Positions 21,344 to 38,168 are shown, counted from the first letter of the stretch. The stretch: DNA of 64,000 nt from Deltaproteobacteria bacterium (GCA_016177765.1 JACOUP010000008.1:65021-129020), one strand, 5' to 3'. Translations and numbers: made by a program. Notes: generated by a model from the sequence alone, not told the origin.

Positions 21344-22831
21344 GTGCCCCTCGAGATCAAACAGAACCTCAGGCTCTCCCAACAGCTCGTCATCACCCCA
21401 CAGCTGCAACAGGCGATCAAGCTCCTGCAACTCTCCCGGCTCGAACTGCAAAATCTGGTCCAGCATGAGCTGTTGGAAAACCCGGTCCTGGAAGAACAGC
21501 CGGAGGAGGAAGAAACCCCCCAGGAGGAGGAGACCTCCGCCGTCACCGAACCGATGGCCCTCCAGCATGAATCCAAGGAAAAACTGACCGAAGAGCTCTC
21601 CAGCGAAACCAAGGAGATGAAGCAACCGACCGATTTTGATTGGGAAAACTACATCGGCCAGTACAACGCCGCCGAGATGTACGGACCGACGGAACCGAAG
21701 GGGGAGGCCCCCTCCAATGATGACCTCCCGACCTATGAAAACAGCCTGACCCGTCCGGACACCCTGCAGGAACACCTGATCTGGCAACTCCATTTTGCCA
21801 ACCTCTCCGAGGAGGAGATGAAGATCGCCGATGAACTGATCGGAAACTTAAGCGACGACGGCTACCTTCAGGTGAACCTGGAGGAATTGTCACAGAAAAA
21901 CGGAAATAATCTCCCCGAGATCGAAGCGGTCCTGAAAAAGATCCAGGAGTTTGATCCCCCGGGGGTCGGGGCGAGGAATCTTCAGGAGTGTCTCAAACTT
22001 CAGATCGGCCACCACGGAGAGGCCAAGGAACTCCTGGCCCATATCATTGACCATCACCTGGCCAACCTGGAAAAAAAGAACTTTCAGGCGATCGCCAAGG
22101 AATGCGGCATCAGCGTGGAAAAGGTGGGGGAACTGGCCAAGGTTATTTCTTTTCTGGAACCGAAACCGGGACGCCCATTCGGGGGAGAACGACCTCAATA
22201 CATCGTGCCGGATGTTTTCGTCCACAAGATCGGCGAAGATTATATTGTCCTTTTGAACGATGACGGTCTTCCGAGACTGCAGATCAGCAATTTTTATCGG
22301 AACGCCCTTATGCAAAAAACGGTGCCGGACAACGCCCGCGACTACATCCAGGACAAACTCCGGAGCGCCCTCTGGCTGATCCGGAGCATCCACCAGAGGC
22401 AGAGAACCCTCTATAAGGTGACCTGTTCCATCGTCAAATTCCAGAAGGAGTTTTTGGAGAAAGGGATTCATTACCTCCGTCCGCTCGTCCTCCGGGATGT
22501 CGCGGAGGATATCGGGATGCATGAATCGACCATCTCCCGCGTTACCAACAACAAGTACGCCCAGACCCCGATGGGGCTTTTTGAACTGAAATATTTCTTT
22601 CATTCCAAGGTCACCACCTCCAACGGGGAGGCGATGACTTCCGAGGCGGTCAAGGATGAGATCCGTAAAATGATTTCCGGTGAAAACCACCAGAAGCCAC
22701 TCTCCGACCAGGAGATTGCCGAGATGCTCCATAAAACCAATATCCAGGTGGCCCGACGAACAGTTGCTAAATATAGAGAAATATTGGGTCTTTTGCCATC
22801 CTCCCGAAGAAAACAGGCCCCTCAAGGCTAA
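21344..22831 (+). CDS. rpoN: RNA polymerase sigma-54 factor
   Basis: The N-terminal activator-interacting region LSQQLVITPQLQQAIKLLQLSRLEL, an acidic region II, and a C-terminal RpoN box (…RRTVAKYRE…). Confidence 0.9.
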   Translation: MPLEIKQNLRLSQQLVITPQLQQAIKLLQLSRLELQNLVQHELLENPVLEEQPEEEETPQEEETSAVTEPMALQHESKEKLTEELSSETKEMKQPTDFDWENYIGQYNAAEMYGPTEPKGEAPSNDDLPTYENSLTRPDTLQEHLIWQLHFANLSEEEMKIADELIGNLSDDGYLQVNLEELSQKNGNNLPEIEAVLKKIQEFDPPGVGARNLQECLKLQIGHHGEAKELLAHIIDHHLANLEKKNFQAIAKECGISVEKVGELAKVISFLEPKPGRPFGGERPQYIVPDVFVHKIGEDYIVLLNDDGLPRLQISNFYRNALMQKTVPDNARDYIQDKLRSALWLIRSIHQRQRTLYKVTCSIVKFQKEFLEKGIHYLRPLVLRDVAEDIGMHESTISRVTNNKYAQTPMGLFELKYFFHSKVTTSNGEAMTSEAVKDEIRKMISGENHQKPLSDQEIAEMLHKTNIQVARRTVAKYREILGLLPSSRRKQAPQG

Positions 22832-22843
22832 AGGAGTAAATTC

Positions 22844-23149
22844 ATGGAACTGCATATGACCTTCCGACACACCGCCCCTACGGAGGCGTTGAAGAGTCAT
22901 GTTGAAGAAAAGCTGGGAAGGCTGACCAAGTATTTTGTCAAACCGGAGGCGTTTCATGTGATCCTGACGGTGGAAAGGGCCCGTCATATTGTCGAGATCA
23001 CATTCTCGGAAAACGGCAACCTCTACACCGCCAGGGAGAAAACAAACAATATGTACCTCTCCATTGACCGAACCATCCACAAGCTGGAACACCAGCTTAA
23101 AAAATACAAAGAGAAGCTCAAAGAACACAAGAAAAAGAGGCTGATTTGA
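22844..23149 (+). CDS. hpf: Ribosome hibernation promoting factor / sigma-54 modulation protein
   Basis: 101 aa, of the YfiA/HPF family, in its conserved position after rpoN. Confidence 0.8.
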   Translation: MELHMTFRHTAPTEALKSHVEEKLGRLTKYFVKPEAFHVILTVERARHIVEITFSENGNLYTAREKTNNMYLSIDRTIHKLEHQLKKYKEKLKEHKKKRLI

Positions 23150-23209
23150 GTCTATTTAGTATTGCTTTTCTTCCAACGGTGTCCTAGCGTCCCCCCCTCG
23201 AGTGACACC

Positions 23210-23680
23210 ATGAAGATCAAGCAGATCCTCCGCGAGAGCTCAGTTGAATCCAACCTCAAGGCCGATTCCAAGGAAGGGGTCATTGAGGAACTGGCCTCCC
23301 TGCTCCTGCAGGGACAGGCGGCGCCTCAACCGGAATTCAGGGAGAAACTGGTCCGCGTCCTGATGGAGCGGGAAAAATTGGGGAGCACCGGCATCGGGAA
23401 CGGCGTCGCGATCCCCCACGGCAAGATGCCCGGTCTGGGCGAGATCATGACCGGCTTTGGGCGAAGCCCGAAAGGGATCGAGTTTGATTCGCAGGATGGA
23501 AGGTCGGCCCATCTTTTCTTCATCCTCGTGGCCCCGGAAAATGCCGCCAGTCTCCACCTCAAGGCCTTGGCCCGCCTGTCCCGGCTTTTGAAAGATGCCC
23601 ACTTCAGAAACAAGTTGATGGAGGCAGAATCCGCCCACGCCTTGTACCAGGCGATTGTTGAAGAAGATGAGAAATTCTAA
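23210..23680 (+). CDS. ptsN: PTS IIA-like nitrogen regulatory protein (EIIA-Ntr)
   Basis: EIIA-Fru/Ntr fold (…GIGNGVAIPHGK…). The start is set at MKIKQILRE (23210). Confidence 0.8.
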   Translation: MKIKQILRESSVESNLKADSKEGVIEELASLLLQGQAAPQPEFREKLVRVLMEREKLGSTGIGNGVAIPHGKMPGLGEIMTGFGRSPKGIEFDSQDGRSAHLFFILVAPENAASLHLKALARLSRLLKDAHFRNKLMEAESAHALYQAIVEEDEKF

Positions 23681-24648
23681 TGATCTCTGTCTCTATCAAT
23701 GAACTGCTGGGCGACAAAGAGTACAAACTCGCTCTGGAGTTGGTGGCCGGCGAAAAAGGGCTCCCCAAAAAAATCGTCATCCCCCAGATCCAGAAACCGG
23801 GGCTCGCCCTGACAGGCGACACCTCCAACCTTCATCCGGGCCGAATCCAGATCCTGGGAACTTCGGAACTCAATTTCTTGACCCGGCTCCCCGCGGCCAA
23901 AAGAAGGACCATTATCAAAAAAATCTGTCATGTGGATATCGCCTGTTTTATTGTCACCCATGGCAATCCAATCCCGGAGTCTTTTGTCGAGGAAACGGAA
24001 AAGAACAGAATCCCCCTCCTCAAGACAACCCTTTCCACCGCCACCTTTATTATGAGGGTCTCGCGCTTTCTGGAAGACAAATTGACAGCCCAGACCGCCA
24101 TTCACGGGGTCCTTGTCGACATCTTCGGGGTCGGCATCCTGCTGGTTGGCAAAAGCGGCATCGGCAAGAGCGAGTCTGCCCTGGAGCTGATCATGAAGGG
24201 GCACCGTCTGGTTGCCGATGATATCGTCAACATCCGCAAAAAACCGCCCGGCACCCTTTATGGCAGCGGTTCCGAGCTGATCAAGTACCATATGGAGATA
24301 CGGGGATTGGGGATCATCAACATCAAGGATCTCTTTGGTGTCAGCTCCGTCAGGGACCAGAAGCTGATTGAGCTGGTGATCGAACTGGTCGAGTGGAAAC
24401 CCAGTGAAGAATATGAGCGGCTCGGGGTCACGGAACATACCTACAAGATTCTGGATGCCAAGGTCCCTTTCCTTCGAATCCCTGTCCGCCCGGGGAGAAA
24501 CCTGACAGCGATCATCGAAGTGGCCGCCCGCAATCAGCTCCTGAAGGCCAAAGGGGTCTATTCGGCCTATGAACTCCAGGAAAATCTGACAAGAGAACTC
24601 TTGAACCAGCAAAAGGAAAAGGATCTCCCTCAAGGGATCATGGAATAA
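23680..24648 (+). CDS. hprK: HPr kinase/phosphorylase
   Basis: P-loop GVLVDIFGVGILLVGKSGIGKSE and the catalytic LVADD. Start ATG overlaps the ptsN TAA (ATGA-type overlap). Confidence 0.9.
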   Translation: MISVSINELLGDKEYKLALELVAGEKGLPKKIVIPQIQKPGLALTGDTSNLHPGRIQILGTSELNFLTRLPAAKRRTIIKKICHVDIACFIVTHGNPIPESFVEETEKNRIPLLKTTLSTATFIMRVSRFLEDKLTAQTAIHGVLVDIFGVGILLVGKSGIGKSESALELIMKGHRLVADDIVNIRKKPPGTLYGSGSELIKYHMEIRGLGIINIKDLFGVSSVRDQKLIELVIELVEWKPSEEYERLGVTEHTYKILDAKVPFLRIPVRPGRNLTAIIEVAARNQLLKAKGVYSAYELQENLTRELLNQQKEKDLPQGIME

Positions 24649-24656
24649 GGAGAGAT

Positions 24657-25112
24657 ATGATAGGAGCCGTTGTCGTGACTCATGGCAACATCGGGACGGA
24701 AATGATCCGGGCCGCCGAATCGATCGTGAAAGAGAAACTCCCGTTTCTTGGCGTCGCCCTGGAACATCACGAATCAGTCCCTACGATGAAAAGCAAGATC
24801 CGGGAGGCGATCGCTTCCTGTCATTCCCCTCAAGGGGTTCTTCTCCTCTCCGATCTGTTCGGAGGGACTCCCTGCAATCTCTGTCTCTCCTTTCTGAAAG
24901 AAGTAAAGGTGGAGGTGGTCACCGGGGTCAATCTCCCGATGCTGATCAAACTCGCCCATTATCGGGAAAACAGGCCGCTGAAAGAAGTGGCCCGTTTCAT
25001 CAGAGAATATGGCAAAAAAAACATCACCTTGGCAAGACAGGTCCTCAAGGGTGATCCACCCAGGGGTGAGTCACCCAAGGGACAAGGGTCCGGTCTATCG
25101 CGATCAGGCTAG
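24657..25112 (+). CDS. PTS EIIA component, mannose/fructose (EIIA-Man) family, with a repeat-encoded C-terminal tail
   Basis: MIGAVVVTHGNIGTEMIRAAE is a typical EIIA-Man N-terminus. The C-terminus KGDPPRGESPKGQGSG is encoded by the repeat. Confidence 0.75.
   Translation: MIGAVVVTHGNIGTEMIRAAESIVKEKLPFLGVALEHHESVPTMKSKIREAIASCHSPQGVLLLSDLFGGTPCNLCLSFLKEVKVEVVTGVNLPMLIKLAHYRENRPLKEVARFIREYGKKNITLARQVLKGDPPRGESPKGQGSGLSRSG
25046..25081. repeat. Palindromic repeat copy, ~2.5 units, at EIIA C-terminus / ptsH start
   Basis: caaGGGTGatcCACCCagGGGTGagtCACCCaaGGG encodes KGDPPRGESPKG in the EIIA frame. It contains both candidate GTG starts of ptsH in the +1 frame. Confidence 0.85.
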
Positions 25113-25371
25113 AAAGACCTACAAGATCACTAATGATCTCGGTCTTCATGCCAGGGCGGCGGCCCTGTTTGTAAAAATTGCCGGACGTTACAAATCCGAG
25201 GTACTCGTCCGTCGCGGAAACCAGGAGGTCAATGGCAAGAGCATTATGGGGGTCCTGATGCTGGCCGCCGGCCGCGGCTCTGAAATAAGCGTCATCACCA
25301 CCGGAGAGGATGCCCAGGAGGCGCTCCAGGAACTGGGACAACTCATCGAAAACAAGTTTGGTGAAAAGTGA
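25066..25371 (+). CDS. ptsH: Phosphocarrier protein HPr
   Basis: …KITNDLGLHARAAALFVKIAG… gives the His15 region and …GKSIMGVLMLAA… the Ser46 region. The start is uncertain: in-frame candidates are GTG 25051, GTG 25066 (both inside a repeat copy) and ATG 25009. Confidence 0.65.
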   Translation: MSHPRDKGPVYRDQARKTYKITNDLGLHARAAALFVKIAGRYKSEVLVRRGNQEVNGKSIMGVLMLAAGRGSEISVITTGEDAQEALQELGQLIENKFGEK

Positions 25372-27113
25372 AGAAAAAAAAGATAAAAACCTTAAAAGGA
25401 CTCGGTGTCTCTCCCGGTATTGCGGTTGGCAAGGTCCATCTGTTTGATACCGGCCCGATTTCTTTCCCAAAATACTGGATTGCTGACCGGGAAATCGGCT
25501 CGGAGGCAGCTCGTTTCAAGAAGGCGATAGAAAAGGTCCGTCATCAGCTTTTGAAAATCCGCGACAAACTTTGTAAATTTCAGGTGGGTGACGAGATCCG
25601 GATCCTCGACTCCTACCAGATGATCGCCAAGGATGAAATGCTCTATTCCTCTACCGTCAACACGATCCGGCAGGAGAAGATCAATGCCGAATGGGCCCTG
25701 GATAAAACCTTAGCCGGTGTCAAGGCCGCCTTCCTCGAAAGCCCTTCGGAATTTTTTAAGGAACGGCGGGCCGATGTGGAACATGTCGGCAATCTGATTT
25801 TTAAAAACCTCCTTGGTGAAGAAGAAGTCACCCTTCGGTTCAAGAAAAATACCATCCTTGTCGTTCACGACCTCTCCCCCGCGGATACCGCCCAGATCGT
25901 CAAGGGGACGATTCAGGGATTCATCACGGAGGTTGGCGGCAAAACATCCCACACCGCAATCTTTGCCAAGGCCCTTGAGATCCCTGCGGTCGTCGGGGTT
26001 GTGGAGGCCACTCGTACCGTTGCCGAAGGAAATTCGCTCCTTCTTGACGGAAGTGAGGGGATCGTGATTATCAACCCCTCCACCAGTGACAAAAAAAGAT
26101 ACCAGGAGATCAAGAAAAAACAGGGACTCATGGACACCCTTCTCCTGAAAGGGGCCCACCTGCCGGCAGTCACCAAGGATAATTTTACCCTCCGTCTGGC
26201 GGCCAACATGGAACTCCTGGAAGAGATCCCTACCATCAAGAAATATGGCGCCGAAGGGATCGGGCTCTACCGGACAGAGGTCCTCTATCTCCGCAATAAA
26301 CGTCTCCCTTCCGAAGAGGAACATTTTGAAAGTTACAAAAAGGTCCTCCAGAAAATTGCCCCCCATCCGGCAACGATCCGGACCCTGGACATCGGAGGGG
26401 ACAAGATTCTGCCTGACTCGGAATATATGGAAGGACTAAACCCGGCCCTCGGTTTCAGGGCGATCCGTCTCTGCCTCCGGGAAAAGGAACTCTTCAGGAC
26501 ACAACTCCGTGCGATGCTTCGAGCTTCTATTTATGGCAAACTGAAGATCCTCCTCCCGATGATCTCCAGTGTGGAAGAGATCCGCCAGGTCAAAAAGATC
26601 CTGGCTGATGTCCGGGAGGATCTCGATCGAAAAGGGGTCCGCTATGATCCCGACATCCGGTTGGGAACGATGATTGAGGTCCCCTCGGCCGCCATGATGG
26701 CCGACGCTATCGCCGGAGAGGTTGATTTCCTCAGCATCGGAACCAACGACCTGATCCAGTACAGCCTCGCTATCGACCGGGTGAACGAGCATGTCGCCTA
26801 CCTTTATGAACCACTTCATCCCGCCATCTTGCGTCTTCTCAAACAGGTGGTTGAGGCCGGGCGTGAAAAAAAGATTGAGGTCTCGGTCTGCGGAGAGATG
26901 GCAGGCGAGCCGTTGTATCTTTTGATCCTTTTGGGTCTCGGTTTTACCGAACTTTCCATGAATCCCCTCTCCATCCCACGCGTCAAAAAAATCCTCCGCC
27001 AGGTGACTTTCAAACAGGGAAGCGACCTCGTTGAGAAGGCCCTCGCCTGTAAAACTACCTCCGAGGTGGAACACCTTGTCCGCCGGGAGATGGCTAAGGT
27101 CCAGGAGATCTAG
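25368..27113 (+). CDS. ptsI: Phosphoenolpyruvate-protein phosphotransferase (Enzyme I)
   Basis: 581 aa with the active-site His region GGKTSHTAIFAKALEIPAVVG and the PEP-utilising C-domain (…IGTNDLIQY…). Confidence 0.9.
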   Translation: MKKKKIKTLKGLGVSPGIAVGKVHLFDTGPISFPKYWIADREIGSEAARFKKAIEKVRHQLLKIRDKLCKFQVGDEIRILDSYQMIAKDEMLYSSTVNTIRQEKINAEWALDKTLAGVKAAFLESPSEFFKERRADVEHVGNLIFKNLLGEEEVTLRFKKNTILVVHDLSPADTAQIVKGTIQGFITEVGGKTSHTAIFAKALEIPAVVGVVEATRTVAEGNSLLLDGSEGIVIINPSTSDKKRYQEIKKKQGLMDTLLLKGAHLPAVTKDNFTLRLAANMELLEEIPTIKKYGAEGIGLYRTEVLYLRNKRLPSEEEHFESYKKVLQKIAPHPATIRTLDIGGDKILPDSEYMEGLNPALGFRAIRLCLREKELFRTQLRAMLRASIYGKLKILLPMISSVEEIRQVKKILADVREDLDRKGVRYDPDIRLGTMIEVPSAAMMADAIAGEVDFLSIGTNDLIQYSLAIDRVNEHVAYLYEPLHPAILRLLKQVVEAGREKKIEVSVCGEMAGEPLYLLILLGLGFTELSMNPLSIPRVKKILRQVTFKQGSDLVEKALACKTTSEVEHLVRREMAKVQEI

Positions 27114-27163: not shown

Positions 27164-27952
27164 ATGATGTTGCCCTATTTTCATCTGAAATATTTAAGAC
27201 CCTCCCCGGCTGAGGCCGAGGGCTGTTTCCGGATTGTGCAGGCCACTACAGGATTGGTAGCCCGTCACCTGAACAAACGGATCTCACTGCCGATCAGCCT
27301 CATTTTGGCGCGAAGGGGATTTAAGCCAAACAACATCACCTATTTTAATATGGTTGTCGGGATCGGCTCCGGCCTTCTGGCCGTCCAGGGAACCGGTTCT
27401 TCCATTTTTTGGGCCGCCTTTCTCTTTCAGGCGGCTTCAATCCTGGACGGTGTCGATGGGGAGGTCGCCAAACTGAACAAAACAGGGACTCCCTTCGGTC
27501 AATGGCTCGATACCTTGAGCGACAACCTGACTCTTTTTCTCTTTCTGATCGGCCTGACCACCGGTCTCTACCAGACCACCCATAACCTCTGGGTTCTGAG
27601 GGCTGGGGAATTGGGGCTCTTCAGTTTTCTCGTTCTCCTCGCAATCATGCTCATTTTTCTCAAAAGAAACACCAATTCGGGGAGCTTTGTCACCTACGAC
27701 AAGGAATTTGTCTCAAAAATCACAGAAGGAAAAGGGGTTCTTCCCCTGCTTGTCAAATACGGACGTTACTTTCTGAAAAAGGACTCCTTCGCCCTTCTCT
27801 TCTTTCTGCTCGCCGCTGTCGGTTACCCCCAGATGATCCTCTATGCCACAGCCCTGGGAACGACTGCGGGATGGTGCCTGATGGCCTATTTCAACCTCAA
27901 AAGAAAATTGGCGAAAAATCTTACCCCTTCCGCCCTGACAGAACCCGATTAG
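27164..27952 (+). CDS. CDP-alcohol phosphatidyltransferase family membrane protein
   Basis: DGVDGEVAKLNKTGTPFGQWLDTLSD matches D-G-x2-A-[RK]-x8-G-x3-D-x3-D. Multiple TM helices. Confidence 0.75.
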   Translation: MMLPYFHLKYLRPSPAEAEGCFRIVQATTGLVARHLNKRISLPISLILARRGFKPNNITYFNMVVGIGSGLLAVQGTGSSIFWAAFLFQAASILDGVDGEVAKLNKTGTPFGQWLDTLSDNLTLFLFLIGLTTGLYQTTHNLWVLRAGELGLFSFLVLLAIMLIFLKRNTNSGSFVTYDKEFVSKITEGKGVLPLLVKYGRYFLKKDSFALLFFLLAAVGYPQMILYATALGTTAGWCLMAYFNLKRKLAKNLTPSALTEPD

Positions 27953-27961
27953 GCAAAAGAG

Positions 27962-28612
27962 ATGAAGACCAAAAAAACAGTTTGCGTCTTTGATTTTGAC
28001 GGGACCCTTGTGGACTCCATGGGTGACTTTGCGGAGCTCGCAGGACGACTCATCAGCGGAACCTATGGTCTTTCTCTCGACGAGGGGAAAGAGGCCTATA
28101 TCCGAACTTCAGGTCTCCCTTTTTTGGATCAGTTAGAAATGGTTTTCCCCGGGGACCCACGAAACGGGGAGACCGCCAGGGCCTTTGAAGAGGAAAAAAA
28201 GAAGGAGTATTTTAGCAAAAATCTCTTTGATCAGGTCCCGGAAACCCTTTCCTACCTCCGTGAAAAGGGGATGAGGGTCGCCATCTCCTCCAGCAACCAT
28301 CAGGAACTGGTCGAGGAATTTTTGAGCAAAAAAGGGATCCGGTTTGACCTTGTCCTGGGTTGGCGCCCCAACTTTTCAAAGGGGAAGGAGCACTTTGAGC
28401 ATATCCAGAAATATCTCAAGACCTCTTCCGATGGTATTCTGTTCATCGGCGATTCCCTCAAGGATGCCGAAAGGGCGGCCCACCACCAGGTTGATTTCAT
28501 CGGCAAGACCGGAACCTTCAAGGCTTCTGATTTTCAGAAAAACTTTCCCCAATTCCAAACCATTGAAGAGCTCTCCGAGTTAAAGGGGATTTTGGGGGAA
28601 GTCCCCCTGTGA
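27962..28612 (+). CDS. HAD-superfamily hydrolase (phosphatase-like)
   Basis: Motif I VCVFDFDGTLVDS, plus downstream HAD motifs (…ISSSN…, …GDSLKD…). Confidence 0.75.
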   Translation: MKTKKTVCVFDFDGTLVDSMGDFAELAGRLISGTYGLSLDEGKEAYIRTSGLPFLDQLEMVFPGDPRNGETARAFEEEKKKEYFSKNLFDQVPETLSYLREKGMRVAISSSNHQELVEEFLSKKGIRFDLVLGWRPNFSKGKEHFEHIQKYLKTSSDGILFIGDSLKDAERAAHHQVDFIGKTGTFKASDFQKNFPQFQTIEELSELKGILGEVPL

Positions 28613-29346
28613 AGGGGGTCATCCTGGCTGCGGGACAGGGGAGCCGGCTCGGGTTACTCACTCGATCACGACCGAAGGCGCTTGTCCCGGTTCTGGAAAA
28701 ACCCCTTATCGAGTACATCCTGACCCTTTGTGATGAAGCCTCTCTGGAGGAGATCATCGTTGTTGGGGGGTATCAGTTTTATAAATTGGCGGCCGTTTTG
28801 GAAAAAAGAGCCGGTGGCACACCCTTGGGTGGCACACCCTACCGCCTCCTCCAAAACCGAGAGTACAAAAAAGGGAACCTGCTGACCCTTGTTTGCGCCC
28901 TCCCTTTTCTGGAGGGGGATTTTTTTATTGCCAATGCCGATCACATTTACCCCCCATCCCTTTTCCACAGCTTTCTGAAAAACGCCAAAGAGATTTCAGC
29001 GGCCTGTGATTTTGACCGTCAACTCTCCGGTGACGACATGAAGATCCGTCATGATTCTCAAAAACGACTTTTGGCGATCAGCAAGAAGCTCCCTACTTAT
29101 GACGGCGGTTATATCGGCATGACCTCCTGTACCAAAAAGAGGCGTGGGCTCTACGAACGGGCCGTTGAGGCCACCTTTCAAAGGAAAGGGACAAAGGCGG
29201 TTGTGGAGGAGGTGCTGGAGACACTGATCCTGTGGGGTGAAAATCCGCTTGTTCACGATGCCAGCGGGCACCGTTGGTGGGAAGTCGATACCCCTTCAGA
29301 GATTCAAACAGTGGAAAGAGAACTCGCCTTGTTCCGTGCCCGGTAG
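28609..29346 (+). CDS. Sugar-/alcohol-phosphate nucleotidyltransferase (MobA-like NTP-transferase fold), with an in-frame repeat insert GGTPLGGTP
   Basis: N-terminal MKGVILAAGQGSRLG. Its start overlaps the preceding stop (4-bp overlap). Confidence 0.7.
   Translation: MKGVILAAGQGSRLGLLTRSRPKALVPVLEKPLIEYILTLCDEASLEEIIVVGGYQFYKLAAVLEKRAGGTPLGGTPYRLLQNREYKKGNLLTLVCALPFLEGDFFIANADHIYPPSLFHSFLKNAKEISAACDFDRQLSGDDMKIRHDSQKRLLAISKKLPTYDGGYIGMTSCTKKRRGLYERAVEATFQRKGTKAVVEEVLETLILWGENPLVHDASGHRWWEVDTPSEIQTVERELALFRAR
28814..28839. repeat. Palindromic repeat copy, 2 units, variant GGTGGCACACCC
   Basis: ggTGGCACaccctTGGGTggcacaccc, in-frame in the nucleotidyltransferase, encoding GGTPLGGTP. Confidence 0.8.
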
Positions 29347-30332
29347 AAGGACAAAAGAAGCCAGCCGGTGGTGACAAAAAAACCGGAACGGAGATGACGG
29401 ATAATCTGCAGAGAAACACCAATCGCCGGGTTAAGTTTCATGAAGTAAAAAACGAGCCCGTTGACCCCTTCAAGAATCCCAAGGCTCCCCGGTATAAAAC
29501 TGAAGACGAAATTACAGAGCGGCACCATGGCGGTCAGCCCCCACAAGGCCGTTACTGGAAGCGGTAATCCCAAGAAATAGAGGATCAACGCCGTTTCTGC
29601 AACCATCACACAACGGGTCATGAAATGACAACCAAAGGCGGCGGCAACCCTCCATCCCCCTTCACGATAGGCCTGCCGGATCAGGTGGTCCACCTCCAGG
29701 AGTTCCTTTCTTTTTTCGGGGGAAATTCTCCTGGTGGCTTGAATACGATCACCAATCTTCAGGAGGACCTCGAACAGGCCTCTTCTTTGAACGAGAAAGA
29801 GGGAGAGGATGGCGACAAAAAGGACGGCCAACCCTCCCGCCAGTTGAAAGACCATACGGACCGGAAGAACCCAGTAAGAGAAAAAGAGGCCAAAGCCGAT
29901 CGCGATGAAAGAGATGACCGCCAAGGTGTAGAGAGACCGATCGACAACAATGGAACGGGTCCCTCCCTGCCAGGGGATATCCCCTCTCAGGAGGTAAACC
30001 CGCAGAGGGTCACCGGCGGCAAAGTTGAGCGGGGTCGTGGCATTCACCGCCTCCCCGATCATCTTGACTTTCAGGAGCCTCCAGAAAGAAGGGTTTTTCT
30101 GCTTGGGTGAACCACCCTTGGGTGAATCACCCTGGGGACCCAGACACAAGGACCAGGCGGTCGCAAAAAGAAAATAATTGACCAGGCTCAGGGAAAGGAC
30201 CGGGATGAAACGCCAGTTAAAATTGATCAACTGGTTCCACAAGACCTCTGGGCCACTTTTCCAGACAACCACAGCGAGAACGGCCAGTCCTATCAGAGGC
30301 AGGAGATACCGAAGAAGTCGCCAACGTTTCAT
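29304..30332 (-). CDS. UPF0104 / lysylphosphatidylglycerol-synthase-TM-region-like (flippase-like) membrane protein, with repeat-encoded GDSPKGGSPK loop
   Basis: 342 aa, polytopic. N-terminus MKRWRLLRYLLPLIGLAVLAVVVW… is typical of the family. Confidence 0.6.
   Translation of the reverse strand: MKRWRLLRYLLPLIGLAVLAVVVWKSGPEVLWNQLINFNWRFIPVLSLSLVNYFLFATAWSLCLGPQGDSPKGGSPKQKNPSFWRLLKVKMIGEAVNATTPLNFAAGDPLRVYLLRGDIPWQGGTRSIVVDRSLYTLAVISFIAIGFGLFFSYWVLPVRMVFQLAGGLAVLFVAILSLFLVQRRGLFEVLLKIGDRIQATRRISPEKRKELLEVDHLIRQAYREGGWRVAAAFGCHFMTRCVMVAETALILYFLGLPLPVTALWGLTAMVPLCNFVFSFIPGSLGILEGVNGLVFYFMKLNPAIGVSLQIIRHLRSGFFVTTGWLLLSFYRARNKASSLSTV
30102..30137. repeat. Palindromic repeat copy, ~2.3 units
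   Basis: cttGGGTGaacCACCCttGGGTGaatCACCCtgggg, in-frame in the minus-strand UPF0104 gene, encoding QGDSPKGGSPKQ. Confidence 0.85.
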
Positions 30333-30394
30333 GATCGGTGGTGAGTAAAAGAAAAAGTTGACTTAGTCAAGGAACACAGTAGTCTTTTCTCCTC

Positions 30395-31471
30395 GTGAAA
30401 ACAGAAATTTCATCCAGATGGCGTCAATGGTCGATGGGAGCGAGGATCGCTTCACGTCTGGTCCTCGGGAAACCGGTCATCTTCAACCTCAACCTCTACA
30501 CCACCCGCCTCTGCAATCAGCAGTGTCCGATGTGCAACGCTGAACTGGATGTCAATGGCGGACCCAGCATCACGCTGGAGGATTTCAGGTATTACCAGGA
30601 CCAATTAAAAAATTATACGATCCCAACAATCACCTTTTCCGGCGGGGAACCAACCATCGCCCCGGAACTTCCAGATATCATTGAGTACTCGTCGAAACTG
30701 TTTCCGTTCCGGATGGGGATCGTCTCCAACTTTTATGGCCGAAATGACCGGTTCCGTCGCACGATGGACGCCTGTCTGAAATACAATGTCAACATCGGTT
30801 GTTCCTTCGATGGCTTCGGAGAAGTGGCTGACAAACAGCGCGGGGCCAGAAATGTCTCGGAGATCGTTACTGAAAACTTGAAATGGGTCACCGCCCGTAA
30901 AAAGGAGCTCGGGTCAAAAGCCCCTCTGGTCATGAACACCGTCATCAGTGACACCAATCTTTCGCAGGTCATGGAGATTGTCCGGTTCTCCAAGAAACTA
31001 GGCTGGGAACACCGGATCTCCTGCGTTAATCAATTCTACTATTATAAACCGGTTTCCGATTCCCCCACCCTGACCTATAGCCGCGAGCTTTATGAAACAC
31101 TGGTCAAGATTATCAACGAGTCGCACATCCGTCAGAACAGGGGGTTCATCAAGGGGATCGCCCTCTATGCCCAAAAGAAAACGCCTAAATTTTGCCCGTT
31201 CATCACCTGGCCGCTCAAGACCGCCAAGGTTTTTCTGGATCACAACGGGGATATCTCCCTTTGCGACCGTCACCCGATCGGTAATCTTAAAAAGGAAAGT
31301 TTTGAGACCTTGTTACAAACAGCCCTGTACCAAGAAAAACAAAATGACCACGACCGGTGCGAAGGGTGCTGGCTCCCCTGCTTTGTGGAGCCGATCACCT
31401 ACTTGCGTCCGCTAGCAATGAGGAAGGTCTTGAAAGAGTTTGACCGCCTCGCTATTTCCTTGCCTCAATGA
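30395..31471 (+). CDS. Radical SAM protein (CX3CX2C) with a C-terminal Cys-rich auxiliary region
   Basis: LYTTRLCNQQCPMCNA and the glycine-rich SAM motif FSGGEPT. C-terminal cysteines …CDRHP…CEGCWLPCF. Confidence 0.75.
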   Translation: MKTEISSRWRQWSMGARIASRLVLGKPVIFNLNLYTTRLCNQQCPMCNAELDVNGGPSITLEDFRYYQDQLKNYTIPTITFSGGEPTIAPELPDIIEYSSKLFPFRMGIVSNFYGRNDRFRRTMDACLKYNVNIGCSFDGFGEVADKQRGARNVSEIVTENLKWVTARKKELGSKAPLVMNTVISDTNLSQVMEIVRFSKKLGWEHRISCVNQFYYYKPVSDSPTLTYSRELYETLVKIINESHIRQNRGFIKGIALYAQKKTPKFCPFITWPLKTAKVFLDHNGDISLCDRHPIGNLKKESFETLLQTALYQEKQNDHDRCEGCWLPCFVEPITYLRPLAMRKVLKEFDRLAISLPQ

Positions 31472-32139
31472 TCCCCTACCGAAGTTCCCAAAAGAGAAAG
31501 GGGTATGCCACCCGAACGTTTCCCTGGGTCACTGTGGCCCTGATTCTGATGAATGTCGCTGTTTTTTTCTATGAGGTCACCCTTCCGGCCGCTCAACTGA
31601 AAGACTTTTTTAAAACCTTTGCCCTCGTCCCGGGCCATTTTCGGCCTCTGGGGTTGATCACCGGGCTCTTTCTTCATGGCGGGTGGCTCCACCTTATCGC
31701 CAACATGCTCTACCTCTGGGTCTTTGGAGACAACGTCGAGGAAAAAATGGGACGCCATTCCTTCCTCAATTTTTACCTCGCCTCCGGCATCATTTCTTTC
31801 CTTGCTCAGGTCGCCTTTGACCCCGGCTCCAGCCTTCCCCTGATCGGTGCCAGCGGGGCGATCGCCGGAATTCTGGGGATCTACCTCCGGCTTTTCCCAA
31901 AGTCACACGTCACCGTCCTTGTCCCGATCTTCATTTTCTTAAGACGAATGATCCTCCCGGCGTGGCTGGTCCTCGGTTTCTGGTTTGTCCTCCAATTATT
32001 GGAAGGATTGCTCTCTCTCCAACAGTTGGAGGCTGGAGCGGCCTCTTCAGGGGGGATCGCCTTTTTTGCCCATATTGGCGGGTTTTTGTTTGGGATTCTC
32101 GTCGGGCCATTGTTTGTAAAAAGAAAAAAACGGGGCTAA
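31468..32139 (+). CDS. Rhomboid-family intramembrane serine protease
   Basis: GASGAIAGILG (the GxSG active site), a downstream AHIGGF histidine, and a 6-TM profile. ATGA-type overlap with the previous gene. Confidence 0.8.
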   Translation: MIPYRSSQKRKGYATRTFPWVTVALILMNVAVFFYEVTLPAAQLKDFFKTFALVPGHFRPLGLITGLFLHGGWLHLIANMLYLWVFGDNVEEKMGRHSFLNFYLASGIISFLAQVAFDPGSSLPLIGASGAIAGILGIYLRLFPKSHVTVLVPIFIFLRRMILPAWLVLGFWFVLQLLEGLLSLQQLEAGAASSGGIAFFAHIGGFLFGILVGPLFVKRKKRG

Positions 32140-33630: not shown

Positions 33631-35661
33631 ATGCCTTTGACTCTAGACCAGGAAACAGCCATTTCAGTCAGCGACACTAACGTCATCCTGATCGCCTCCG
33701 CCGGTTCCGGCAAGACCTCCGTCCTGGTAGAAAAATACGCGGCCCTTTTGGGGCAAGTGGAGCCGCAGAATATCCTGGCAATCACCTTCACCGAAAAAGC
33801 GGCCAAGGAACTAAAAAACAGGATCCAGAAAAAACTGGGGTTGGCACCGGGAACTCTGGACCAGACCGTTATCAACACCTTTCACGGCTTCTGCGCCGAT
33901 CTCCTGAAGGAAAAAGAAGAGATCAAAATCATGGATGAACACCTGACCACGGCCGTTCAGGCACAACTGATTCATGACGGTCTCCTCACCCTCCTCGAAG
34001 AGGAAGAACCGTCGACCATCCGGATGATCGCCGAATTCGGTTTTCATCGAACCCACAACCTCCTCCTCACCGCCTTTGACGAGTCCTACAACCTGCGACA
34101 CTGGTGGTCCCAAAAAAAAGAAGATCTCCGGGAAGACCCGCTCATCGTTCCCTTTTTCGAACTCTTCGAAAAAATCCATCACCGCTACCAATTAGAGAAA
34201 AAAGGGAAAGGGCTTTCCGATTTTGACGACCTGGAGGAAAAAATAATCCATCTGCTGGAAACCAACGTTCCAGAAAGGGAAAAACTCCAGAACCGGTTCC
34301 GCTTCATCCTGGTGGATGAATTCCAGGATACCAGCCCGATCCAGACGCGACTTCTCGATCTCCTGCACCAGTCCGGCAAGAATCTCCTCTTTGCCGTCGG
34401 CGATCCTAAACAGTCAATCTATCAGTTCCGCGGTGCCGATCTCAGTCTCTTCAAAGAGAAGATCCGACAAATCAAAAATGGGGAGGGAAAAATACTCTAC
34501 CTCCGTGATAATTTCCGCTCTTCACCCGCCTTGATCGAACCGATCAACCGCTTTTTTGAAAAAGTCCTTCCCCCGGAAGATTTTCAACCGATGCTCCCCC
34601 GAAGCGAGAAGGAGGGACTGGGGATCCAGACGCTCCCGCTGATAGAGGTCCAAAGCGCCTCCGAAAGACGGCTTCAGGAGGCAGGAGCCATCGCCTCAAA
34701 AATCATCGAACTCCGTCAAGAAAAAAGAGATTTCCGGGAAATGGTCTGTCTCTTCCGGACACGAACAGCGATCCCTCTCTTTGAAAAGGTCTTCCAGGAG
34801 CACCAGATCCCCTGCCATGCCGTTTCCAGAGGGGCTCTTTTCGAGGCCCAAGAGGTCCTTGACCTCGTTAACCTCCTCAAGGTGATCGCCAATCCCAATG
34901 ATACCCTTTCCCTCGTCGGGGTCCTGCGCTCCCCCCTCTTCGGCCTGACCGATGAGGAGATCTTTCTTGGGTGGCACACCCTTGGGTGGCACACCCTTGA
35001 ACAAAGAGCAGGGACACTCCTGAAAAAATATCACTTTGCCAAAGAGCTCAATCAATGGTCCAAAAACAAAACCATCAGTGCCCTTCTTCTCCACCTCTGT
35101 GAACTCTCATTTTTGGAGAAACTCTTCCGGACAGCTCAGGAGACCGCCAATCTCGAACGGCTGATCGCCCTGGCAGAGTCGTTTGAGGCGCTTGGCGTCA
35201 CCACCCTGGCACAATTTCTCACCACCGTCGAGGCGCTCCGGGAGGCCGGCACCCGGATCCCGGAGGCCTCACTCTTCGCCCCGAGCGCCAACTGCGTCCG
35301 ACTGATGACCGTTCATGCCTCAAAAGGCCTTGAATTTCCTATAGTTTTTATGACAGACCTCTCGTACCGACCGAGGACCGATTCACCGCTCTTCCAGTTC
35401 CATCCGCAAAAAGGGATCGGCTTCAAACACCTTTCGGAAGATTCCCAAGGACTCAAGGATCACTTTGAAAAGAGCCCTGAATATGAGAGATTGGAAGAAG
35501 AAAAAAAGAAGAAGGGAAAGGAGGAATCGATGCGACTCCTGTATGTTGCCATGACGCGGGCCCAGGAGGGACTCTTTCTCCCACTCACGCCGATCAACGG
35601 CAATAAAAAGGGGATCACTTGGAACGACCTTCTGGTCCCCTTATTTCTGGACAAGGGATGA
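33631..35661 (+). CDS. UvrD/Rep/AddA-like SF1 helicase (no nuclease domain), with in-frame repeat insert LGWHTLGWHTL
   Basis: Walker A SAGSGKT, motif II FILVDEFQDT, and motif V/VI VHASKGLEFPIVFM. Confidence 0.8.
   Translation: MPLTLDQETAISVSDTNVILIASAGSGKTSVLVEKYAALLGQVEPQNILAITFTEKAAKELKNRIQKKLGLAPGTLDQTVINTFHGFCADLLKEKEEIKIMDEHLTTAVQAQLIHDGLLTLLEEEEPSTIRMIAEFGFHRTHNLLLTAFDESYNLRHWWSQKKEDLREDPLIVPFFELFEKIHHRYQLEKKGKGLSDFDDLEEKIIHLLETNVPEREKLQNRFRFILVDEFQDTSPIQTRLLDLLHQSGKNLLFAVGDPKQSIYQFRGADLSLFKEKIRQIKNGEGKILYLRDNFRSSPALIEPINRFFEKVLPPEDFQPMLPRSEKEGLGIQTLPLIEVQSASERRLQEAGAIASKIIELRQEKRDFREMVCLFRTRTAIPLFEKVFQEHQIPCHAVSRGALFEAQEVLDLVNLLKVIANPNDTLSLVGVLRSPLFGLTDEEIFLGWHTLGWHTLEQRAGTLLKKYHFAKELNQWSKNKTISALLLHLCELSFLEKLFRTAQETANLERLIALAESFEALGVTTLAQFLTTVEALREAGTRIPEASLFAPSANCVRLMTVHASKGLEFPIVFMTDLSYRPRTDSPLFQFHPQKGIGFKHLSEDSQGLKDHFEKSPEYERLEEEKKKKGKEESMRLLYVAMTRAQEGLFLPLTPINGNKKGITWNDLLVPLFLDKG
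34966..34999. repeat. Palindromic repeat copy, ~2.3 units, GGTGGCACACCC variant, third reading frame
   Basis: cttGGGTGgcaCACCCttGGGTGgcaCACCCttg, in-frame in the helicase, encoding LGWHTLGWHTL. The TGG variant removes the TGA that the canonical unit carries in this frame. Confidence 0.85.
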
Positions 35662-38168
35662 TCCCTTCCCTTCCTAAAGAGCTTCTGGATCAAGCCGCTT
35701 CCCCACGGGAGGCAGGGCACTTTTTTTCGGCCTGGTTCACAGCCTACCGTCAGGAAAGGGGAAATCCGCCTGATTTAAAACATCCCTCGGGCTCAAAAAT
35801 CCTTTCCCTCTTTGGGAATTCGGCATGGCTTTCCCAATTCCTCGGCAATCACCCCCTTCTCTACGATTCCCTCGGTTCCTCCCCCTTCCTCACCAAAAGA
35901 AAAGGCCTGGAAGACCACCGGGAGGACCTTCGACAAGTCCCCAAGGGTGATTCACCCAAGGGTGTGCCACCCAAGGGCGATTCGCCCACGGGCGACTTTC
36001 ATTCAAACCTCCTCCTCTATAAAAACAGCGAGCTTTTAAGGATCGCCCTCCGTTCTCTTGAAATCGGCTCTTCTGAAGAAGAAATCGGTCACGAACTTTC
36101 CGACCTGGCCCAAGCGATTGTCGAAAAGGCCCATCAGGTGCTGGGAGCCATTCATCAACGGGAATTGGGTCTTCGAAAAATTCCCCTCTGTTGCCTCGGT
36201 CTTGGAAAACTGGGAGGCCAGGACCTCAATTTCAGCTCCGACATTGATCTCCTCTACCTCTATGGTGACGATGAAGAACGAGGCTCTGAACTCTCCACCC
36301 ACGAATACTTTGTGAAGCGGGTTGAAAGAGAACGGCATTTCCTGAGCGACAAGACCGATTCTTTCCTCTATCGCGTCGATCTGGATCTTCGTCCGGAAGG
36401 GAAAAAAGGGACGCTTGTCAATTCACTCCCCGCCCTCGAAGAGTATTACGAAACCTGGGGGGCGGAATGGGAGAGAATCGCCCTCATCAAGGGACGATGC
36501 CTCGCCGGTGACAAGCCACTGGCCGAAAAATTCATCAAGATGGCCCACCCCTTTGTCTGGCGGAAAAGCTTCGAAGACTCCGCCTTGAACCAGATCAAGA
36601 CAATCAAGGAGAAAAGTGATGCCCTTTTGAGAAAAAAAGTCGTTCCCACTTTTCATGTCAAACTCGGGAGCGGCGGAATCCGGGAAGTCGAACTATTCGT
36701 CTGGATTTTTCAGTTGATCTTTGGCGGCCGCCACCCGCAACTCCAGGAAGCCCATACCCTTCAAGCCCTTCGCCAGCTCAAGGCCCTCTCCCTCATCCCC
36801 GCCAGGGAGACCAAACAGTTGGAAAAGGCCTATCTTTTCCTGCGGCGGATAGAAAACCGACTGCAAATGCAAGAGAACCAGCAAATTCATCAGATTCCGG
36901 AATCAGCCGAGGGACAGGAGGCCCTCGCCCGTCTCCTCGGTTACCCCCAGGAAACACGAAAAGCGGCCCGCAAGGCTTTCTTGGAAGACCTCGAACAAAC
37001 ACGGACCTATGTTCAAAAACATTTCGCCAGTCTCTTTGAAAGAGGACCTAAAAAACAACGCTCCTGGAAGGAAGAGCAGACGCTCAGGCTCCAGTCAGAA
37101 TTGGAGCCGCTACCGACTGTTGAAGAAAAATTCGACAGCCTGCGCCTCTTTAAAAAAGAGGTGACCGGTGAAATCATTCAGGAAGACCAATCGGGAAAAC
37201 TTTCTTTTACGAACTTTCTTGTCAGAAATACAGAACTGGCCGAGGTGATCCTCCAGGAGGCCTATCAGATCGCCCTTGCCGAAATGGCCGCCCGCTATGG
37301 TCCCCTGAAGGGAGAGGGACTCGCCATTATCGGCATGGGAAAGCTGGGGGGAAGAGAGTTGACTTACCGGTCGGACCTGGACCTCCAATTCCTCTATGAC
37401 GAAAATTCCTACAACAAAACCCTGTCCCTTCAGGAATATTTTGCAAAACTCGCTCAGAGGGTCCTCTCTTGTCTGACAATCATCACCGAACAGGGATGGG
37501 CCTACAAGATCGACACCGCCCTCCGTCCTTCGGGAAGCGCCGGTGTCCTTGTCGGTTCACTGGCCTCTTTTCTGGAATACCACGAAAAAGAGTCAAAAAC
37601 CTGGGAAAAACAGGCCCTTCTCAAGGCGAGACCGGTTGCCGGCGACCCTTTTCTTTGTGACAAGGCCGCCGTTTTTCTGAAAGGGATCCCGTTCCGCTTT
37701 CCCCCCTCCCCTTCCCTCCTCCAGGATATCGCCTCTCTCCGGACCCGGATGGAAAGAGAGATTGCCAGAGAGACCGAGTCATCCTGGAATTTGAAGACAG
37801 GATACGGCGGTATTGTGGATATTGAATTTCTGACACAAGGCCTGCAACTCCTTCATGGACGGGATTTTAGTGAATTGGCGGAGCCCAATACGCTCCTGGC
37901 CCTTGAAAAACTCTCAGGACTCCAATTTCTCACTCCCCAGGAGACCAATGACTTGAAGGAAGGGTACCAATTCCTCCGCCGTCTGGAAACCGCACTCCGG
38001 CTCCAATTGGAGAGCCCCACCGATTGTCTTGAATTAACCGCTCCCTGGCTCCCCACGATGGCAACAGCCCTCAATTTTTCTTCAGCAACGGCACTTGTCG
38101 ACGCGGCCCGCTCCTGGAGGAAAAAAATTCGCGGCCTTTATGAAGGGGTGTTTGGAAGTCGGGGCTAG
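35658..38168 (+). CDS. glnE: Bifunctional glutamine synthetase adenylyltransferase/adenylyl-removing enzyme
   Basis: Two nucleotidyltransferase modules (GLGKLGGQDLNFSSDIDLLYLY and IGMGKLGGRELTYRSDLDLQFLY). The N-terminal region contains 3.5 tandem repeat units. ATGA overlap with the helicase stop. Confidence 0.85.
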   Translation: MIPSLPKELLDQAASPREAGHFFSAWFTAYRQERGNPPDLKHPSGSKILSLFGNSAWLSQFLGNHPLLYDSLGSSPFLTKRKGLEDHREDLRQVPKGDSPKGVPPKGDSPTGDFHSNLLLYKNSELLRIALRSLEIGSSEEEIGHELSDLAQAIVEKAHQVLGAIHQRELGLRKIPLCCLGLGKLGGQDLNFSSDIDLLYLYGDDEERGSELSTHEYFVKRVERERHFLSDKTDSFLYRVDLDLRPEGKKGTLVNSLPALEEYYETWGAEWERIALIKGRCLAGDKPLAEKFIKMAHPFVWRKSFEDSALNQIKTIKEKSDALLRKKVVPTFHVKLGSGGIREVELFVWIFQLIFGGRHPQLQEAHTLQALRQLKALSLIPARETKQLEKAYLFLRRIENRLQMQENQQIHQIPESAEGQEALARLLGYPQETRKAARKAFLEDLEQTRTYVQKHFASLFERGPKKQRSWKEEQTLRLQSELEPLPTVEEKFDSLRLFKKEVTGEIIQEDQSGKLSFTNFLVRNTELAEVILQEAYQIALAEMAARYGPLKGEGLAIIGMGKLGGRELTYRSDLDLQFLYDENSYNKTLSLQEYFAKLAQRVLSCLTIITEQGWAYKIDTALRPSGSAGVLVGSLASFLEYHEKESKTWEKQALLKARPVAGDPFLCDKAAVFLKGIPFRFPPSPSLLQDIASLRTRMEREIARETESSWNLKTGYGGIVDIEFLTQGLQLLHGRDFSELAEPNTLLALEKLSGLQFLTPQETNDLKEGYQFLRRLETALRLQLESPTDCLELTAPWLPTMATALNFSSATALVDAARSWRKKIRGLYEGVFGSRG
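35939..35994. repeat. Palindromic repeat copy, ~3.5 units, in glnE
   Basis: ccaaGGGTGattCACCCaaGGGTGtgcCACCCaaGGGCGattCGCCCacGGGCG encodes PKGDSPKGVPPKGDSPTGD. Confidence 0.9.

Follow-up and report, generated by a model that had tools for sequence, protein, structure and literature searches.

The locus described here raises the question whether five contiguous genes, found in a 64-kb stretch of DNA (hereafter the window) from a contig of at least 1.36 Mb in an uncultured metagenome-assembled genome (MAG) labelled 'Deltaproteobacteria bacterium', serve a single pathway and what this pathway would make. The genes encode a CDP-alcohol phosphotransferase, a HAD phosphatase, a nucleotidyltransferase (NT), a UPF0104 flippase-like membrane protein and a radical S-adenosylmethionine (radical SAM or rSAM) protein. 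They form a real and recurring module, and with a probability that we put at about 0.55 they act together at the membrane in making a phospholipid with a modified head group, which is most probably inositol-based and assembled via a Kennedy-like CDP-inositol route.

Domain assignment via Pfam upheld all five open reading frames (ORFs) and domain calls of the first-pass annotation above the curated cut-offs, i.e., the transferase (27164-27952, plus strand; 262 aa; PF01066), the HAD phosphatase (27962-28612, plus strand; 216 aa; HAD_2/Hydrolase), the NT (28609-29346, plus strand; 245 aa; NTP_transf_3/NTP_transferase), the UPF0104 protein (29304-30332, minus strand; 342 aa; LPG_synthase_TM, PF03706) and the rSAM protein (30395-31471, plus strand; 358 aa; Radical_SAM and SPASM). 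The first three genes (hereafter the triad) are tightly linked, as had been described, with a 9-nt gap from transferase to HAD and a 4-nt overlap between HAD and NT. The UPF0104 gene indeed converges on the NT gene, overlapping it by 43 nt, and diverges from the rSAM gene across a 62-nt gap. Within this divergent intergenic region, a near-palindrome (TTGAC-TTA-GTCAA; 30358-30370) could be an operator or promoter element.

Recurrence of the module and fusions between its genes

An alignment of transferase homologues (A1) led to 80 loci drawn from species-representative genomes (identified by L numbers), of which the closest (L006-L017; n=12) stood at 38-47% identity. A further relative (L133) stood at 54%. 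The ORFs flanking the close transferase loci were compared by all-against-all clustering, and from the rSAM side the neighbourhoods of 37 loci with the rSAM subtype of the window (type A, as opposed to a divergent type B) were surveyed. The order transferase, HAD, NT was kept in 14 loci (L006-L013, L015-L017, L122, L133 and the P0134 contig) and was constant among the close loci wherever the contig reached far enough; the HAD gene lay between the other two in 11/11 close loci with DNA spanning that position. Beyond the families described here and below, clustering of the flanking ORFs of these close loci returned no other common family.

The two remaining genes accompany the triad in varying arrangements. 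A UPF0104 gene was adjacent in L007-L010, L012, L013, L015-L017, L086 and L133; in eight close loci (L008-L010, L012, L013, L015-L017) it comes after the triad in the same orientation, and in L007 it lies upstream of the triad on the opposite strand. An adjacent rSAM gene was of type A in L007 and L086, and of type B in L008-L010, L013-L017 and L133. The nearest relative (L086, with an rSAM protein 76% identical to that of the window) shares the synteny of the window, including rhomboid and AddAB-like genes. L133 has the triad and, ca. 3 kb downstream, a divergent pair of a UPF0104 gene (minus strand) and a type-B rSAM gene (plus strand) resembling the arrangement in the window, while the triad is convergent with a type-A rSAM gene in L122 and on the P0134 contig.

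Moreover, several of the genes were found fused. The NT is joined to UPF0104 in L013 (11378-13057; 559 aa), and to the transferase in a Myxococcota MAG (L024; 9215-10696), where a type-B rSAM gene begins 1 nt later; an ORF in L038 matches the latter fusion in length and may be a fusion of this kind, judged by tblastn matches to both NT and transferase. UPF0104 is joined to the transferase in an Acidobacteriaceae locus preceded by an NT gene (L072; 8309-10714), and all three domains occur in a single 834-aa ORF of a Saprospiraceae genome (L056; 6934-9438). NT, transferase and UPF0104 are thus fused in all pairwise combinations and in one triple fusion, which is strong evidence that they act in one pathway at the membrane.

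Chance adjacency was rejected on the strength of the conserved order, the unrelated flanks (in lineages 38-54% identical) and the gene fusions. The first-pass annotation had tied its module to co-occurrence of the genes, and the set clearly does recur in unrelated flanking contexts.

In L006, a gene for BacA/UppP (undecaprenyl-pyrophosphate phosphatase; 12071-12871) follows the triad with overlapping stop and start codons, in the place of UPF0104, a slight sign that certain lineages may use an acceptor carried on a polyprenol.

The core enzymes and their proposed product

The transferase, a polytopic membrane protein without an N-terminal cytosolic domain, belongs to the CDP-alcohol phosphotransferase superfamily (PF01066, 52 bits vs. 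a cut-off of 22). Its signature is intact (D95-x2-D98-G99-x2-A-K...G112-x3-D116-x3-D120, with K for the R of the canonical A-R), and the catalytic motif was invariant throughout alignment A1. Families were assigned via NCBIfam equivalog cut-offs, and the top match was the DIPPS half of the IPCT/DIPPS family NF041135 (75.7 bits vs. a cut-off of 580), in which IPCT stands for inositol-1-phosphate cytidylyltransferase. The top solved structures were AF2299 (4o6m, 5.6e-15) and DIPPS (4mnd, 5.9e-10), and the protein remained below the cut-offs of the phosphatidylinositol phosphate (PIP) synthases (mycobacterial NF045883, 41 vs. 170; BT_1523-type NF052561, 27.7 vs. 350). Judged by these scores, it is closest to the DIPPS/AF2299-like branch, and both AF2299 and DIPPS take soluble CDP-alcohol donors. 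A housekeeping PgsA or PssA was rejected (pgsA TIGR00560, 23.5 vs. 109; pssA TIGR00473, 29.2 vs. 107).

The NT (NTP_transf_3, 59 bits; NTP_transferase, 47 bits) has an intact GQGSRL loop and stays under the cut-off of NF041135 (50.4 bits vs. 580). A profile built from module-linked NTs (A3) was compared with the sequences of solved structures, and matched the Archaeoglobus fulgidus IPCT best (2xme, E 6.3e-24, full length, positions 1-232), together with 4mnd (1.8e-23) and the Thermotoga maritima structure 4jd0 (1.6e-16), while sugar-1-phosphate NTs aligned across the N-terminal loop only. Because other cytidylyltransferases (see below) score nearly as high, this full-length likeness to IPCT does not settle substrate specificity; the NT is predicted to be a phospho-alcohol cytidylyltransferase of the IPCT/LicC/PntC clade that makes a CDP-alcohol donor.

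The HAD protein is of the HAD-IA type (HAD_2, 68 bits; Hydrolase, 44 bits), with both the DFDGT and the GDSLKD motif. Its homologues, of ca. 210 aa, form a compact, module-specific subfamily and share contigs with transferase homologues, namely those of lengths 1355061, 5395, 107124 and 688155. A generic phosphoglycolate phosphatase was rejected, as no equivalog cut-off was attained and the subfamily shares contigs with the transferase. Homologues also turned up in MAGs of Candidatus Hodarchaeota (Asgard archaea), where a HAD protein (P0275; 44%) and a type-A rSAM protein (P0135, in L092; ca. 46%) lie on separate contigs.

The UPF0104 protein matches PF03706 over residues 13-321 of 342 (113 bits). 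With this as its sole match and without a C-terminal aminoacyl-phosphatidylglycerol (PG) synthase domain, it was rejected as an MprF. Its top NCBIfam match was HpnL (TIGR03476), at 89.4 bits under a cut-off of 195.65, and the homologue in L008 reached 116 bits. For the PF03706 domain, termed PplT, a general role in phospholipid translocation has been proposed, and it is described as occurring fused to cl11394 and to HAD-like domains (10.1101/2022.03.11.483950). In the gpgSDF and hexSDF lipid operons a standalone UPF0104 gene is predicted to encode the flippase, an activity as yet unproven for standalone UPF0104 proteins (PMC12713373).

Since none of the six window proteins (the five plus the adjoining rhomboid) attained any NCBIfam equivalog cut-off, none is a recognisable housekeeping enzyme. 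Orthology to pgsA or to a generic phosphatase, the other explanation considered in the first-pass annotation, was not borne out either, with equivalog scores far under the cut-offs.

From these intact catalytic motifs, the gene context and the fusions, we infer which alcohol is used, that the product is a lipid, and all the steps of the pathway, as follows. The NT would join CTP to an alcohol phosphate, likeliest L-myo-inositol-1-phosphate supplied by a myo-inositol-1-phosphate synthase (MIPS) encoded elsewhere in the genome, and so yield a CDP-alcohol. From this soluble donor, the transferase would hand the phospho-alcohol on to an acceptor in the membrane, e.g., diacylglycerol or a lipid resembling ceramide. 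The HAD protein, whose role is the least clear of the core steps, may dephosphorylate a phosphorylated intermediate or control the precursor pool. By analogy with MprF, GpgF, HexF and HpnL, the UPF0104/PplT protein would then carry the finished lipid to the outer leaflet, and the rSAM protein may tailor the head group or the lipid.

Inositol is the head group best supported by inference, because genes for MIPS (PF07994, 329 bits, plus PF01658) lie directly downstream of the module in L012, L013, L015 and L017, because the NT profile best matches IPCT, and because the transferase is DIPPS/AF2299-like. The CDP-activated alcohol logic of the first-pass annotation (of the di-myo-inositol-phosphate (DIP) or inositol-lipid type) is backed by the same three lines of evidence. 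Its wording, i.e., a modified and possibly exported phospho-alcohol lipid or solute, can be narrowed, since the fusions favour the lipid and speak against the solute.

The favoured lipid product, to which slightly better than even odds are given, rests on the flippase-like domain fused to the transferase (as in MprF), the family GT4 glycosyltransferases that follow the transferase in Bacteroidota loci (L023/L082), the Bacteroidetes clusters discussed next, the PplT proposal, and the gpgSDF/hexSDF operons.

Clusters of NT, transferase and HAD genes with a neighbouring LPG-synthase-like gene of the BT_1521 type and a BT_1527-like CarboxypepD_reg gene are known from Bacteroides vulgatus and Prevotella veroralis; inositol sphingolipids are produced by B. 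vulgatus and by Prevotella species even though they lack the canonical PIP route (PMC9246714). The core examined here (NT, transferase, HAD and UPF0104, with or without MIPS) is of the same kind: likened by gene content, both have the NT-transferase-HAD set (27164-29346 in the window) with a PF03706 gene nearby (29304-30332, minus strand), MIPS occurs in four relatives, a CarboxypepD_reg gene directly follows the NT gene in L133, and both fit a Kennedy-like CDP-inositol logic. The window differs in having no clustered MIPS, in coming from a Deltaproteobacteria-labelled MAG lineage, and in the conserved rSAM partner, which is unmentioned in PMC9246714. The statement of the first-pass annotation that the module matches no obvious characterised pathway therefore fails for the core, which matches this published, unverified alternative inositol lipid cluster, and stands for the rSAM link, which is new.

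The module also recalls the IPCT/DIPPS system (A. fulgidus AF0263, 4mnd/2xme; T. maritima 4jd0), which holds the closest relatives of the NT and transferase, draws on a soluble CDP-alcohol donor from an adjacent or fused NT and includes a phosphatase step. In contrast to that system, the module has split genes, a dedicated HAD protein, flippase-like linkage and fusions, an rSAM protein, and scores far under the equivalog cut-off; the flippase-like linkage and fusions together with the rSAM protein point to a lipid rather than a solute, as if an IPCT/DIPPS-like pair had been redirected to a lipid acceptor. The PIP-synthase route of mycobacteria and Bacteroides thetaiotaomicron (CDP-diacylglycerol plus inositol-1-phosphate to PIP and then phosphatidylinositol) has the product class, a CDP-OH_P_transf enzyme with a phosphatase, and MIPS in common with the module, but can do without a cytidylyltransferase for a soluble alcohol and employs a PgpA-like phosphatase rather than one of the HAD type (PMC9246714). 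Finally, MprF, gpgSDF, hexSDF and hpnI-J-K-L all have a UPF0104/PplT protein encoded with, or fused to, lipid head-group enzymes, whereas the module lacks an aminoacyl-PG synthase, glycosyltransferase or deacetylase and its UPF0104 protein scores under the HpnL cut-off.

A number of observations weigh against an inositol phospholipid made by all five proteins. As for the gene set, the UPF0104 and rSAM genes of the window are transcription units apart from the triad, the triad of L006 occurs with BacA and without UPF0104 or rSAM within 10 kb, and type-A rSAM homologues in L092, L094 and L095 are without any module-type neighbours. As for the alcohol, a tblastn search with the L015 MIPS returned no MIPS in the window, and MIPS is adjacent in only 4/12 close loci; profile A3 scores the aminoethylphosphonate cytidylyltransferase PntC (6pd1, 4.5e-23) and the phosphocholine cytidylyltransferase LicC (1jyk, 5.7e-21) almost equal to IPCT; and an aldolase gene in five relatives means that the alcohol could differ from inositol. 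As for the chemistry, the reaction of CDP-inositol with diacylglycerol requires no phosphatase, so that the HAD protein is unexplained in the simplest lipid scheme, DIP synthesis is the only biochemically proven use of an IPCT, a DIPPS-type enzyme and a phosphatase together, and the Bacteroidetes cluster used for comparison is itself putative and biochemically unverified (Heaver 2022, PMC9246714).

The aldolase, which recurs as a sixth module gene among relatives, is a class II aldolase/epimerase (PF00596) encoded right after UPF0104 in L007 (973-1656), L008 (9144-9845), L009, L010 and L012, with FucA, 3-oxo-tetronate-4-P decarboxylase and AraD-like families as its top NCBIfam matches, all under the cut-off; L012 has both this gene and MIPS, and no aldolase was found in the window.

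The same pathway logic may thus run on another small phospho-alcohol, a phosphonate or a polyol phosphate (e.g., a product linked to the aldolase), which would account for the lack of MIPS in the window, the aldolase of the five relatives and the near-equal fit of the aminoethylphosphonate and phosphocholine enzymes; AF2299, the closest structure to the transferase, moreover has no assigned substrate. We nevertheless regard a different alcohol as unlikely, with MIPS being the only recognisable alcohol-phosphate supplier adjoining the module (in four loci), the window covering just 64 kb of its contig so that a distal MIPS is quite possible, and no choline kinase, PEP mutase or glycerol-phosphate gene having been seen in the annotated neighbourhoods.

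About equally improbable is a triad that makes a soluble inositol phosphodiester (DIP or glycero-phospho-inositol) as a compatible solute, with UPF0104 and rSAM either unrelated or exporting and modifying this solute. The NT would then be IPCT, the transferase would act as DIPPS on CDP-inositol and inositol-1-phosphate, and the HAD protein would strip the remaining phosphate, which makes this the sole scheme that needs a phosphatase. It can also draw on the DIPPS and IPCT identity of the best family and structure matches and on the MIPS adjacent in relatives; when MAGs from cold, deep settings contain IPCT/DIPPS homologues, these are routinely taken to mean DIP synthesis, so that life at moderate temperature is no argument against it. 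However, the actual IPCT/DIPPS scores (75.7 and 50.4) lie far below 580, and in three lineages the transferase or NT is fused to a domain of the phospholipid-translocator type, which would have no role in making a cytoplasmic solute. The GT4 glycosyltransferases after the transferase in Bacteroidota, the inositol lipids made by Bacteroidetes with the analogous cluster, and the conservation of rSAM and UPF0104 alongside the triad likewise disfavour it.

Less probable again is that the module makes no bulk phospholipid and instead attaches a phospho-alcohol to an envelope glycoconjugate (lipid A or lipopolysaccharide, a glycan carried on a polyprenol, or a polymer resembling teichoic acid), much as phosphocholine is added by LicC/LicD. 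The NT is indeed LicC-like, BacA/UppP directly follows it in L006, Wzx-like Polysacc_synt flippases, LtaS/EptA-like and NPP-type enzymes adjoin the rSAM gene or the NT-transferase fusion in other genomes, and nearby genes on the P0134 contig encode PMT_2, DegT, a hexapeptide transferase and a UDP-sugar dehydrogenase. These envelope genes vary from locus to locus, however; known CDP-OH_P_transf enzymes use lipid or small alcohol acceptors and not glycans, and known decoration systems rely on LicD-type transferases.

The radical SAM family

The rSAM protein of the window belongs to the Radical SAM/SPASM proteins (PF04055, 42.6 vs. a cut-off of 29.5; SPASM PF13186, 28.4 vs. 21.5). Its CX3CX2C motif and extra C-terminal Cys cluster, both reported in the first-pass annotation, correspond to C40-x3-C44-x2-C47 and to Cys 267, 290, 322, 325 and 329, which are invariant in the family. 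Five of the seven canonical SPASM cysteines are retained, and the resulting C-terminal pattern (C-x22-C ... C-x2-C-x3-C) is neither full SPASM nor classic twitch; the protein, with its reduced SPASM/twitch-like domain, is referred to as type A. Gene calls in the databases begin 13 codons downstream of the start at 30395.

The family is rare, and two divergent subtypes occupy one and the same slot of the module. A word-indexed search of 5.8 billion clusters returned 40 matches, and an exhaustive hidden Markov model search of 1.84 billion representatives returned 31 proteins at E<=1e-30, beyond which scores dropped steeply to those of generic rSAM/SPASM proteins. Type B, which is shorter (320-330 aa), is the subtype of most close transferase loci; in L008-L010 and L013-L017 its gene lies upstream of the transferase gene in divergent orientation. 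Although types A and B are only ca. 20-25% identical, their profiles align along the whole length (99.7% probability, E 3.5e-27, 314 columns), and all cluster cysteines are in register; both have the uncharacterised PTO1314 family (TIGR03961) as top NCBIfam match (56.5 bits for A and 75-83 for B, under a cut-off of 306). They are therefore two branches of one family.

A UPF0104 gene lies directly upstream of the type-A rSAM gene and overlaps it in L087, L088/89 and L091, an overlap that suggests translational coupling, and the two genes are divergent in L086 and L093. Among the 37 type-A loci, the gene directly upstream encodes UPF0104 in ca. 11 and a PF00884 'sulfatase' (membrane-anchored and LtaS/EptA-like) in 7; such PF00884 proteins precede the rSAM gene in L090 (94-7988), L099, L101-L103 and L108, those of L090 having N-terminal transmembrane segments and an LtaS/EptA-like look. 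Type-B rSAM genes directly follow a gene for an NPP-type phosphodiesterase (FPSTTGPAH) in L037, L038 (17505-18971) and L080. Given these alkaline-phosphatase-superfamily neighbours, which are free of the formylglycine motif, a wider role of the rSAM family in phospho-headgroup metabolism is suggested. In L087/L091, the UPF0104-rSAM pair is preceded by tdh/kbl-like genes, which were considered as an aminotransferase partner and judged a probable housekeeping pair.

While the association of the rSAM protein with the module is well supported, its chemistry is a matter of speculation. In the lipid pathway proposed above, the likeliest reaction would be a two-electron oxidation or epimerisation of a ring hydroxyl (following the logic of BtrN, DesII and anSME) or a ring rearrangement (following that of HpnJ and Cds), because of the auxiliary-cluster domain and the closest folds. 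As a tentative proposal, held with less confidence than the lipid pathway itself, this previously unrecognised family, with types A and B as interchangeable partners of UPF0104/PplT, may remodel the inositol or cyclitol head group of a CDP-inositol Kennedy-type phospholipid. A precedent for the gene pairing exists in the hpn cluster, where HpnJ, an rSAM protein that remodels the head-group ring, is encoded beside the UPF0104 protein HpnL (assigned to its family via the TIGR03476 match). HpnJ is larger and carries a B12-binding-like domain, and the module rSAM protein appears to be of another type. It also stands apart from the small-molecule SPASM/twitch enzymes BlsE, DesII and BtrN, with just 12-17% identity and a different five-Cys pattern. 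A literature search gave nothing relevant on rSAM proteins with inositol and CDP-alcohols, nor any follow-up of the alternative inositol-lipid pathway.

That the rSAM protein is instead a protein maturase (an anSME-like formylglycine generator) or a mere frequent neighbour seems very improbable, and an anSME-type sulfatase-maturase role was rejected, since three 'sulfatases' of L090 that were checked have N-terminal transmembrane segments and no canonical C/S-x-P-x-R site, the nucleophile of the type-B neighbours is a Thr of the NPP type, no anSME was among the PDB profile matches at E<=0.01 or the NCBIfam matches listed, the window rSAM gene adjoins no alkaline-phosphatase-superfamily gene, the overlap with UPF0104 suggests translational coupling, and two subtypes share one module slot.

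Surroundings of the module and wider meaning

Downstream, a rhomboid gene (31468-32139, plus strand; Rhomboid, 117 bits via Pfam) overlaps the rSAM gene by 4 nt. It is therefore present after the rSAM gene as the first-pass annotation had stated, but was rejected as a sixth member of the module, being kept only in the nearest relative L086; apart from the rhomboid and AddAB-like genes of that locus, homologues of rhomboid, ptsP and AddAB were absent from all other loci surveyed. Upstream, a same-strand run (21344-27113) comprises rpoN, hpf, a ptsN-like EIIA gene, hprK, EIIA-Man, HPr and ptsP, with short or negative gaps. As had been noted, the module directly follows this nitrogen phosphotransferase system (PTS) cluster, with 50 nt and no terminator-like site between ptsP and the transferase gene, so that in this genome transcription from ptsP may read through into the module. 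A link between the nitrogen PTS and the module was nevertheless rejected, as the proximity is not conserved (L133 has cytochrome bc genes upstream). No Rfam match to a regulatory RNA was found in the window.

A 15-nt unit, GGTGATTCACCCAAG, with the palindromic core GGTGA-T-TCACC, occurs 11 times in the window vs. 0.24 times expected by chance, at sites on the minus strand (4993-5024, 9311, 12192 and 30115-30131) and the plus strand (17500, 25065, 35946-35992, 62160 and 63356). Each site holds 1-3 tandem copies, which are nearly always in frame within long ORFs and encode (K)GDSPKG in unrelated proteins, i.e., the C-terminus of EIIA-Man, UPF0104, a GlnE-like ORF and others. The UPF0104 protein of the module carries a 10-aa insert that is absent from all homologues, and a diverged two-copy site on the other strand of the AddA-like gene (34969-34998) is an antisense variant reading GWHTLGWHTL. 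The units look like lineage-specific in-frame mini-insertions.

Returning to the module itself, what is new is its conserved partnership with a rare, two-branched rSAM family, the fusions that tie the PplT domain to the transferase, and its spread to Myxococcota, Acidobacteriota, Saprospiraceae and uncultured MAGs of the 'Deltaproteobacteria' type. Few bacteria have inositol lipids, which are relevant to envelope biology and host interaction, and the module places the gene logic of the proposed CDP-inositol route far outside the Bacteroidota. The fusion proteins join cytidylyltransferase, transferase and PplT 'flippase' domain into one machine, and the rare rSAM protein of the module is included in no published scheme. 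As a compact cassette of five or six genes, the module would lend itself to heterologous lipidomics, for which the fusions would be useful single-gene expression targets.

Should the rSAM protein indeed remodel the head group, a new class of membrane lipid, which might also serve as a new biomarker, would exist in Myxococcota and in uncultured lineages of the 'Deltaproteobacteria' type, as a bacterial phospholipid counterpart of the head-group chemistry of HpnJ and calditol synthase. This would also give a first means of approaching the function of the alternative inositol-lipid route, itself unverified, and a testable function for two orphan families, i.e., the rSAM clade and the standalone UPF0104 proteins.

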